From: Schmidtea polychroa
Lineage: Eukaryota
Assembly: GCA_044892525.1 (NCBI GenBank)
Contig: CM097885.1
Coordinates: 21,144,001-21,208,000 of the forward strand
Reading direction: 5' to 3'
DNA length: 64,000 nt
The notes below the pieces were generated by a model. It was not told the DNA's origin. It was given only the letters and a program-made list of their open reading frames with translations, and ran no database searches. Position 1 is the first letter of the stretch. Each line of letters opens with the position of its first letter. This document shows positions 30,101 through 33,100 of this stretch, one piece after another. Position numbers and translations under genes: made by a program.

Positions 30101-33100
30101 TACAAACAAATAATGTTTTTCCGCTACCACTAGGACCAACGATTTGGTATACTGCATCATTTCTTAATTCCATTTCAAAAATTTTATAAATGTGTATTTG
30201 TTTATATTCGATGATTTAATGAACTCGTGCTCAATTTGTATATAAAGACTAATTTTCATAAATGATTTAATAATGTTAGCAAATATAAATTATCGAGGAA
30301 ATTTTGATGTATCGAATATGACGTTCCCACCAGGGAAACCCCAGCAAATTATCGATAGAAGCGGGAAATATCCGATAATATTTTTCAAGACTGGTAAATG
30401 CAGAATCATGGGATGTAAGAAACCTTTGGATATTAATAAATTACAATATCGAATAAATAATATTATAATCCAATAATATTATAATAACCGTTACTATGGA
30501 TATGGGACATTGTATCAATCTATATAACATGTCGAAAAAATGTGATTGTATGTTTGAACCGGAATTGTTTTCGGCACTAAGACTATTAAAATATAACCCT
30601 ATATGTGTCAACGTGTTTGCTAGTGGAAAGGTTGTCATGTTGGGGTTGAGAAATTTAGAGTATAGAGAATTTGTTGACAATGTTCGAAATGAGATAATTT
30701 CATTGGTCGATTTCTAATTGGTTAATTTCTAATTGGTTATTGATTGATTTAAACAAACGGTTTTTTGTTTAGGATTCATTTATTTCACTATGTACAAAAT
30801 TCCGAGCGCCGCGAATCTCATGAAAGAAATAGATGATTATGGTAAATTTAAAATTTTTATTTTCACATTTTTTTATATTTATTATTTTTGAAAAATATTT
30901 AGAAGTCATGATCAATAGAATAAAATATTATTATCCGCAAATTGCTGAAGTAATCAAGGATCGGGAACCGGAAATCATCCCTGATTTGATTTTTTATTCA
31001 ACTCAAATAAGAATCATGGAGGTATTTCAACAATTTTTATGGGATGTGAAAATCAACAGAACTATGAAGCAAATGGAGCCAGAATACCAATGCATCATCG
31101 GATGCTCATGCTGTGCCGATCGATATCGGCGATATGTCGAAAGGGAGTTAGTGAAAACTCTGCGAAGGTTTCACTACTCCCGGATTGTTGATTTAGGTTA
31201 TGAATAAATGTATTTTTGTATCTGTGTTTTTTTTATTTTATATTTGAAATAGTAATAAATAATAATAGTAATAATAATAATAGTAATAGAAATAATAGAA
31301 ATATGAATAGTAATAATAATAATAATAATAGAAATAATAGAAATATGAATAGTAATAATAATAGTAATAATAGAAATATGAATAGTAATAATAATAGAAA
31401 TAATATAAATAATATAGTAATAATAAAACATTAATAGAACATAAATGCAGCATTAATGCAAATGACATGCAAATTTAAACAAAGACATTCTATAATCTGA
31501 TTGGTTGATAGGCATGAGTCAAAGGTATAAAAACCCTGTAACATTTCAATTTCATCATTATTCACGATGACCAAGAAAATTTCATGCACCGAAAAACCTA
31601 AAGAAATGGTACAACCAGTTCAAATGTTCCATAACTACAAAATGTATTTTTTGAAAGAAGAAATCAATATGAAATTGGTTGCACCAGTCAAGCTAATTCC
31701 AACTAAATTTCAATTCTTATCCGGCACGCTTTCAATAATTGATGTCAAAACTATTGATGATGTTTTTAAACGGATAGATTCGAATCTATCATGTAATCAA
31801 CATGCATGGTTCAACAATAGATATGCAAGATTTTATGATGCTTTTGATGAAATCAGTTTCAAAGAAAATGAAAATTGGTATATAACTATTGCAATCCAGG
31901 GATATAAAGTTGATAATAATGATGTATATTCTCCTATTTGGAAAATTATGTCTGCTAGACTTTCACAAATATTTTAATGTTATATTTAATAAATGTATTA
32001 GTCAGATTTGTTTTTCTCTTTATTAATTGCAACATAAATGCAAATGACATGCAAATTTAACAAAGAAAATCTATAAACAAACTTAAAATATAGCTTTAAA
32101 GTGATGAAAATGACTGCAGAAAAAGGTTAACATGATTTATTAATTACCGAATTATTTATTATTTAGAATTTTTAATCAACTTTTTGTTGGAAAAGTTAGC
32201 AGAAATATCTGGTGTGAAAATTGAGGACATATTATCTATTACAAATGCCTTAAATATTGGCTGGATAGTTGAGAGTCAAGATACAGGATTTGATGATGAG
32301 GAAGAAACTCAAGAAATTGATGAGGAAGAAACTCAAGAAATTGATGAGGAAATCTATGAACCTATAGATGAACCTATAGAGGAACCTATAGAGGAACCTA
32401 TAGAGGATTCTAAAGATGAATCTAAAGATAATATTACGAATGATTGTATTGATCATGTCGTTGAAAATATAATGAAATGTGGAGATGACGACTGCGAAAG
32501 TGTTAATTAATAAATCTTAGTTAATTAGTGTTTGTAAATTTATTTAAAATTTTATTTTAAAAATAAAATCAAACAAAATAACTATATTAATTTTTATTTA
32601 AAAAACCGACATAAAACATACAAAATAGCAACACCTGTTGCAAGTTTTATATAGTTTTTAAATTTTCTTTTCTGATCATCTATTTCCTTCGCATTTCTGG
32701 CGAGGTGATTCAGTACGCCCCATCCGCCATTGGCTTCAATCCATGGTTGAAAATTTGACTTGATTATCTAGAAAATATATATTAAGTATTAGTTCTTGAG
32801 ACCACTGATAAAAATTGTTCAGAGTCCCATAGACTTCTTTCGATTATGATCTTCATGTAAGCGAACCCTACTAGTATTCGGGTCCACTTCATCTCATCGT
32901 CGCATAGACAGTTAAAAATCCTATTAAAATAGAATTTTTTAGTTTCGATGCAATCGGAATTGAGCACATCATCATAATCAATATGATTTCCTTCTATGAT
33001 CTTTTCGGTCCGATCGACCAGGAAACTCAGGCTTTCCATAATATTCTTGTTGACGAGTTCGCTTAAAAGATTTTCCATAAATTGAGACATTTTTACAATA

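Follow-up and report, generated by a model that had tools for sequence, protein, structure and literature searches.

An intron-bearing Bcl-2-like gene as standard cargo of a multicopy planarian Polinton, likely captured from a host paralogue and likely anti-apoptotic

Homologs of apoptosis regulators are known as cargo of Polinton-type elements from the work of Starrett et al. (2021, PMC8502044), who described adintovirus homologs of Bcl2 and IAP, termed homologs of anti-apoptotic proteins, with three Bcl2 labels appearing in the text of their Supplementary Fig. S2. The main text of that paper contains neither "splic" nor "schmidtea", and the readable portion of its supplement contains none of "schmidtea", "planari", and "dugesia". 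In planarians themselves, according to the available portions of the reports concerned, Burro LTR retroelements carry a BCL2-like domain (PMC6431247), SMEDWI-2 keeps the Polintons of S. mediterranea silent until this silencing is lifted in differentiation (PMC8532177), and the host gene Smed-bcl2 is needed for cell survival (PMC3566077, PMC7586133). In the accessible literature, subscription papers and Repbase aside, no account was found of a Polinton Bcl-2 that is spliced or comes from a flatworm.

The window analyzed here is a stretch of 64,000 nucleotides from Schmidtea polychroa, in which two Polintons each carry a copy of a Bcl-2-like gene. In the model favored in this work, which we regard as probable, the gene belongs to the standard cargo of a Polinton family that is young and present in many copies; it is likely spliced from two exons to encode a 156-residue Bcl-2 protein with a predicted tail anchor, was likely captured from the host, and likely holds off apoptosis during replication of the element.

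Element 1, a Polinton/Maverick that spans 7742..34627 and carries copy 1, is bounded by inverted ends (AGTAGA...TCTACT) that agree without a mismatch in their first 60 nt, has AG...CT termini, and is flanked by a 6-bp target-site duplication, TAAATC, at 7736-7741 and 34628-34633. Its ORFs give Pfam matches to DNA_pol_B_2 for a protein-primed polB, to rve for a retroviral-like integrase (below the cut-off, E 6e-6), and to the Pox_A32 packaging ATPase, and those at 25409-26629, 26993-28060, and 25001-25390 are presumably the major and minor capsid proteins and the cysteine protease, going by motifs and gene order; a Pfam scan of the first two gave no informative match. The end of element 2, which carries copy 2, occupies 62175..64000 in inverted orientation relative to element 1 and extends past the window. 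In all subfamilies whose context was read, the Bcl-2-like gene lies inside the element and adjoins one terminal repeat. The proposal of the initial annotation that an intron-split Bcl-2-like gene lies inside a Polinton was thereby borne out, each exon matching Pfam Bcl-2 in order within a bounded element.

The tail-to-tail neighbor of the Bcl-2-like gene within the element is an acidic ORF, itself with a predicted GT...AG intron of 41 nt (32126..32166, plus strand). A 63-nt GT...AG intron is also predicted in the integrase gene (28635..28697, minus strand), and its counterparts in two further copies span 72 and 80 nt; ATT microsatellite fills several introns of this spliced-type Polinton lineage. 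A 166-aa ORF (33196-33696, plus strand), arranged head to head with the Bcl-2-like gene at a distance of 105 nt, has hydrophobic ends, a coiled-coil-like middle, and no clear Pfam family, and is 85% identical in subfamily B. A compact TBP-like gene at about 30270-30717 (plus strand) is frameshifted in element 1, and its counterpart in element 2, in the adjoining stretch L031 (4020-4457, minus strand), scores 56.5 bits with Pfam TBP. Gypsy-like LTR retroelements are inserted in element 2 (L031:5720-9998) and located between the two Polintons (window 40409-44053).

Element 1 also holds an ORF at 19422-19976 (minus strand) with a C-terminal IAP-type C3HC4 RING and no BIR seen, in a segment (about 14470-23330) that is missing in element 2 and in which inverted arms (15139-16513 and 20745-21985) flank the ORF. 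The RING ORF at 19422-19748 was considered as a regular IAP of the family and rejected, as this 108-aa ORF has no BIR match and its segment is absent from element 2. In the 11265-11373 region (minus strand), what splits polB of element 1 is a single in-frame stop rather than an intron.

Copy 1 of the Bcl-2-like gene lies on the minus strand and is a decayed member of the family, the gene being open in other copies. Its exon 1 (32793..33090, 298 nt, ATG at 33090) encodes helices 1-5 with a BH1-like KWTRI; it is followed by a decayed intron remnant of 25 nt (32768..32792) that starts with CT and ends with AG, and by exon 2 (32594..32767, 174 nt), which encodes the BH2 motif, a linker, and a short hydrophobic tail with basic flanks, in keeping with the second exon that had been proposed on the basis of WIEANGGW and such a tail. 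The tail ends in LYVLCRFFK, and the stop codon is overlapped by AATAAA. A putative promoter at 33120..33150 (minus strand) comprises a CCAAT box (33146-33150) and TATAAAT (33120-33126) 5′ of the ATG, and such boxes upstream of the Bcl-2-like ATG are common to the three subfamilies compared.

Copy 2, on the plus strand, has an open exon 1 of 297 nt or 99 codons (63656..63952) and a phase-0 GT...AG intron of 44 nt (63953..63996) with a GC content of 11%, against 34-36% in the exons. Just the first 4 bases of its exon 2 (63997..64000) fall within the window, where the open frame is consequently not visible; the remainder, in the adjoining stretch (L031:1997-2170), is open and encodes 57 aa followed by a stop. 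In the account of decay given by the initial annotation, the CT donor and the shortened intron of copy 1 stand, as does one surplus base near 32810-32816 in exon 1, though adjoining substitutions blur whether that base is a T; of what had been said about copy 2, the 44-nt GT-AG intron holds within the window and the open second exon only beyond it.

Both copies belong to a Polinton family of which the genome holds well over a hundred copies. A protein search with exon 1 yielded 150 scored matches (of 2376 candidates), all at least 92% identical; 20 of them, the query included, are identical to exon 1, and a stop within exon 1 was seen in 3 of the 150, a count biased by the ranking. The 29 other loci that a DNA search brought up all match element 1 in the same flanking sequences. 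When 31 copies were checked base by base, both exons were open with GT...AG in 10 and the gene was broken in 21, while the GT donor and the AG acceptor were each kept in 30. Several copies differ by only 0-3 nt over 515 nt, which indicates that the family spread recently.

The case for splicing rests on the comparison of subfamilies. In related subfamilies with Polinton context and 66-77% protein identity, GT...AG follows the same codon and encloses 44, 45, and 42-51 nt, and more distant or decayed relatives have an intron of 39, 41, and 94 nt at the same codon. This is the pattern of a spliceosomal (U2) intron, with a conserved codon position, variable length and sequence, and a restored frame. 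Stop read-through instead of splicing was ruled out, since 44 nt is not divisible by 3. When a BLASTP alignment was made between a read-through translation and the intron-free host protein P0003, its 151 columns contained a single 10-residue gap, which is equal to the 30-nt intron of that copy, and the Trp-to-Trp spacing is equal in vertebrate Bcl-xL-like rows. A cellular Bak-like gene of the same genome has a predicted intron of 49 nt, which makes the short intron size plausible. The dN/dS ratio was 0.09-0.32 in 10 of 12 exon comparisons, with dS saturated in the other 2 and p < 0.005 in all 12, and for exon 2 it was 0.12-0.32 in 6 of 6; judged by these substitution patterns, both exons are under purifying selection. 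A two-exon gene spliced at the GT...AG intron is, at the level of sequence, strongly supported. Searching a protein database with exon 1 (54-174 aa) gave 1 match of 1 candidate, in an unspliced frame, and among the database relatives found there was no spliced protein record, these being unspliced exon-1 frames.

It is scarcely credible that the gene goes unspliced, with only the 102-103-residue exon-1 frame being made, or that it is unselected passenger DNA. Introns of 30 nt occur in two otherwise open copies and are possibly too short for splicing, but exon 2 is selected in the spliced frame, the intron alone is free to vary in length, and the gap relative to the host protein equals the intron. 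Nor does a pro-death, Bak/Bax-like protein that releases virions or kills cells appear as anything but very improbable: BH1, BH2, and the tail anchor occur in Bak/Bax too, yet the aligned place in helix 2 reads LSFLVD, LNFLVN, or LSFLIN, with the killer BH3 motif LxxxGD absent, and the protein does not group with the host Bak-like L045/L047, one of which has LASIADTL. A third reading keeps the Bcl-2 fold and does away with classical BH3 sequestration; the protein would instead influence autophagy, calcium in the ER, or the shape of mitochondria, or would pair with the host paralogue as a decoy. Non-apoptotic roles exist among several viral Bcl-2-fold proteins and provide a precedent, and the BH1 change described below, the identity of only 25% to the host paralogue, and the long branch would fit; against it, BH1 Trp/Arg, BH2, and tail are all under purifying selection, the top fold matches are pro-survival, and the host paralogue likewise has a non-Gly BH1. 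We consider this reading unlikely.

An origin other than capture has to be weighed as well, namely that an old viral gene was passed vertically among adintoviruses, or that the host paralogue was itself domesticated from an element. Bcl2 labels on adintovirus maps from other animals (PMC8502044, as far as its accessible text goes) would agree with this, as would the fact that two Polinton families carry the gene beside the same neighbors (orf136 and TBP-like); the trees were midpoint-rooted only and contained no adintovirus Bcl2 sequences. On the other hand, the nearest relatives among 42 matches in 1.84 billion proteins are kin of the planarian paralogue, and domestication would have required the host to regain a post-GGW intron site that is common to 5 of 9 presumed cellular loci. 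An origin of this kind is therefore quite unlikely, and capture from the host is retained as the preferred reading.

Membership in the Bcl-2 family is supported at several levels. Taken separately, the exons match Pfam Bcl-2 (PF00452) below the cut-off, exon 1 at profile positions 12-66 (E 0.01) and exon 2 at 86-100 (E 0.18). Read-throughs with X, made from copies whose intron length is divisible by three, scored 31.0 bits for the window-type (cut-off 31.4, E 3.9e-7), which retains 10 intron residues, and 34.4 and 34.6 bits for two other subfamilies; the Pfam search suggested in the initial annotation hence returned two read-throughs above the curated cut-off. Further scores, obtained with neighbors, were 31.5 and 31.4 bits. 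In the PDB, exon 1 by itself comes closest to A1/Bfl-1 and exon 2 to Bcl-xL (E > 0.1), Atlas places exon 1 in Bcl-2 clusters at 0.93 with low recognition, and the family profile finds Bcl-xL in the PDB at E 8e-9.

The AF2 model of a read-through, a sequence which includes 10 intron-derived residues and a private Trp75, reached pLDDT 81 and pTM 0.72. In a VIA structure search with this model the top 23 matches were all of Bcl-2 type (Z 13.0-8.5), the best being Bcl-xL (Z 13.0, rmsd 2.7 over 122 residues), and Foldseek ranked Bcl-2 proteins first (best E 1.9e-3, prob 1.00) with no row at E <= 0.001. The structural check that had been recommended thus came out on the side of a Bcl-2 fold by AF2 and VIA, while the Foldseek values for the read-through model stayed above 0.001. 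The predicted fold of the product is a Bcl-2-type helical bundle with the hydrophobic helix 5 at its center. As for the motifs, WIEANGGW of exon 2 agrees with the BH2 pattern W-x4-G-G-W, and BH1 (NWGR) reads KWTR, in which Trp and Arg are kept and Gly is changed to Thr, the host paralogue having RWSR with Ser. In Bcl-xL, the BH1 glycine matters for Bax binding. The tail, which is short, contains a hydrophobic 15-mer (mean hydropathy 1.6-2.1; 1.9 given for the best 15 residues) and is homologous to the host tail; the 156-residue protein is predicted to be tail-anchored.

The candidate donor is the host locus L044, which is 89% identical to the Schmidtea mediterranea "Bcl2-like protein" (UniRef C9WPR4, ACW83059.1; P0003 here), a gene which we take to be the one knocked down as Smed-bcl2. 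Compared with host loci, the Polinton protein scores 57-61 bits against L044 and at most 29 against other host paralogues; against P0003 it shows 25% identity over 151 columns (E 3e-19 as a pair), and exon 2 aligns gaplessly to the host tail. The closest of the 42 matches mentioned above are likewise kin of this paralogue. No Polinton gene was seen within the 20 kb read around L044, which adjoins a peptidase-like gene. Among viral contigs, 30 pattern matches included 0 relatives, and in metagenomes 1 of 123 was related, apparently an ordinary cellular Bcl-2. Burro, whose match to the Polinton protein reaches about 22 bits, was rejected as donor. It is likely, as far as sequence comparison can tell, that the gene was captured from L044.

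A second Polinton family (L055-L060, e.g., L056:1429-1863, with context in L075-L078) carries an intronless 144-aa Bcl-2 (Pfam 32.7 bits) that is 40% identical to L044, with TBP-like and orf136 homologues beside it and an integrase gene without the intron. In a tree of 15 rows both Polinton types group with L044/P0003 (support 90/91), and in a tree of 28 rows they group with L044/P0003 and P0009-P0011; a first tree, which included Burro and fragment rows and an L099 sequence read in the wrong frame for a few residues ahead of the junction, gave no resolution (54/72), and the later ones dropped 6 and 7 rows, mostly long-branch, partial, or redundant. The phylogeny against host Bcl-2 genes that had been called for in this way placed the gene with L044/P0003 (94/97 in the 28-row tree, with donor-clade support just under the mark of the tool), but it did not decide between one capture and two (78/39). 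AU tests rejected neither a single Polinton clade (p 0.34) nor a Polinton-plus-host grouping without P0010/P0011 (p 0.12).

Other Bcl-2 loci were encountered in these comparisons. P0010 and P0011 are multi-variant Bcl-2 proteins, with clusters of 13 and 3 members; in the tree they join the host paralogue, and they possibly represent another element-borne family in a related animal. In the decayed region L107/L108 (G000:C2:119831001-119851000), an intronless-type Bcl-2 interrupted by an insertion lies about 6.5 kb from a spliced-type copy whose intron measures 94 nt; this may be either a single element with both types or two neighbors. At least 7 near-identical cellular-type Bcl-2 copies (L033-L039) lie within 0.9 Mb at G000:C4:89.9-90.8 Mb, having a canonical NWGR and no GT after GGW. 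A cellular Bak/Bax-like gene with the BH3-like LASIADTL and short predicted introns lies at L113:9311-9963, about 19 kb from its paralogue L047.

The intron positions add to the history of the gene. The two exons of L044 are split by a 2972-nt intron directly after GGW, and a GT at this place is seen in 5 of the 9 presumed cellular Bcl-2 loci compared, whereas the element gene is contiguous after GGW and has its short intron 16 codons earlier. Between helix 6 and the tail, BH2 included, the element gene is spaced as in L044/P0003, and it lacks their N-terminal extension and helix 1-2 loop. Because the host intron sits at a different site, the gene appears to have lost its intron on or after capture and to have acquired a new one later; starting from L044, the post-BH2 intron would have been lost and the helix 6 intron would then have arisen in this Polinton lineage.

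In the mechanism proposed for the favored reading, host RNA polymerase II would very probably transcribe the gene from the CCAAT/TATA promoter and the host spliceosome would remove the intron, following which the product, folded as a Bcl-2 helical bundle, is predicted to insert its C-terminal helix into the mitochondrial or ER membrane. Its groove would, by analogy with the family, hold the BH3 helix of a host partner, either a Bak/Bax-like or a BH3-only protein, and membrane permeabilization set off by integrase cuts or linear-DNA replication might thereby be blocked. We infer an anti-apoptotic role, the protein being placed on the pro-survival side by the missing killer BH3, the retained BH1 Arg, its closest structures, which are pro-survival, and the described need of cells for Smed-bcl2 (PMC3566077, PMC7586133). 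The Gly-to-Thr change in BH1 and the shortness of the tail weigh against it, although the host paralogue also departs from Gly. A complex prediction with the two exon products and a host Bak-like BH3 region gave 0.07 (mark 0.34), with no call either way. The reported de-silencing of Polintons in differentiation (PMC8532177, from its available part) suggests when the Bcl-2-like gene would act.

A broader scenario, which is possible though doubtful, is that the essential pro-survival bcl2 of the host was taken up by planarian Polintons, perhaps on two occasions (a spliced and an intronless form), and that one lineage gained new spliceosomal introns in bcl2, integrase, and a third gene. Together with Burro, three mobile lineages would then have converged on the apoptosis switch behind planarian tissue turnover, and Bcl-2 from de-repressed copies could be enough to influence which of the stem-cell progeny live on. 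For annotation, the locus illustrates that half of such genes is missed when only ORFs are considered. With an intronless and an intron-bearing Polinton family in one genome, the idea that an intron is lost upon capture and a new one gained afterwards can also be put to the test. As blocking of apoptosis is a typical virus function, the gene supports the view that Polintons live as viruses in host cells.

That Bcl-2 is carried by Polintons and adintoviruses is already known, and the parts worth keeping are the donor and the intron history; to the Polinton/adintovirus Bcl2 cargo this work adds a flatworm case with an identifiable donor and clear purifying selection. Viral Bcl-2 proteins (iridovirus, ASFV A179L, herpesvirus, adenovirus E1B-19K) and Bcl-xL share the compact fold predicted for the Polinton protein and have a C-terminal anchor such as its tail may form (A179L at VIA Z 12.4; the top BFVD match an iridovirus BCL2-like protein, E 9e-3), but are 9-20% identical, with no sign of direct descent. 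Burro, as described in the accessible part of its report (PMC6431247), is likewise a planarian mobile element with a Bcl-2 domain, which differs in being part of a retroelement polyprotein and in scoring about 22 bits against the Polinton protein; many Bcl-2 matches in this genome sit in frames of 1000-3000 aa, which are probably Burro. A parallel by description is the adintovirus Bcl2 (PMC8502044, available portions), where a Polinton-type element likewise has a Bcl-2 homologue among its accessory genes; the planarian gene differs in having an intron and a traceable host paralogue.
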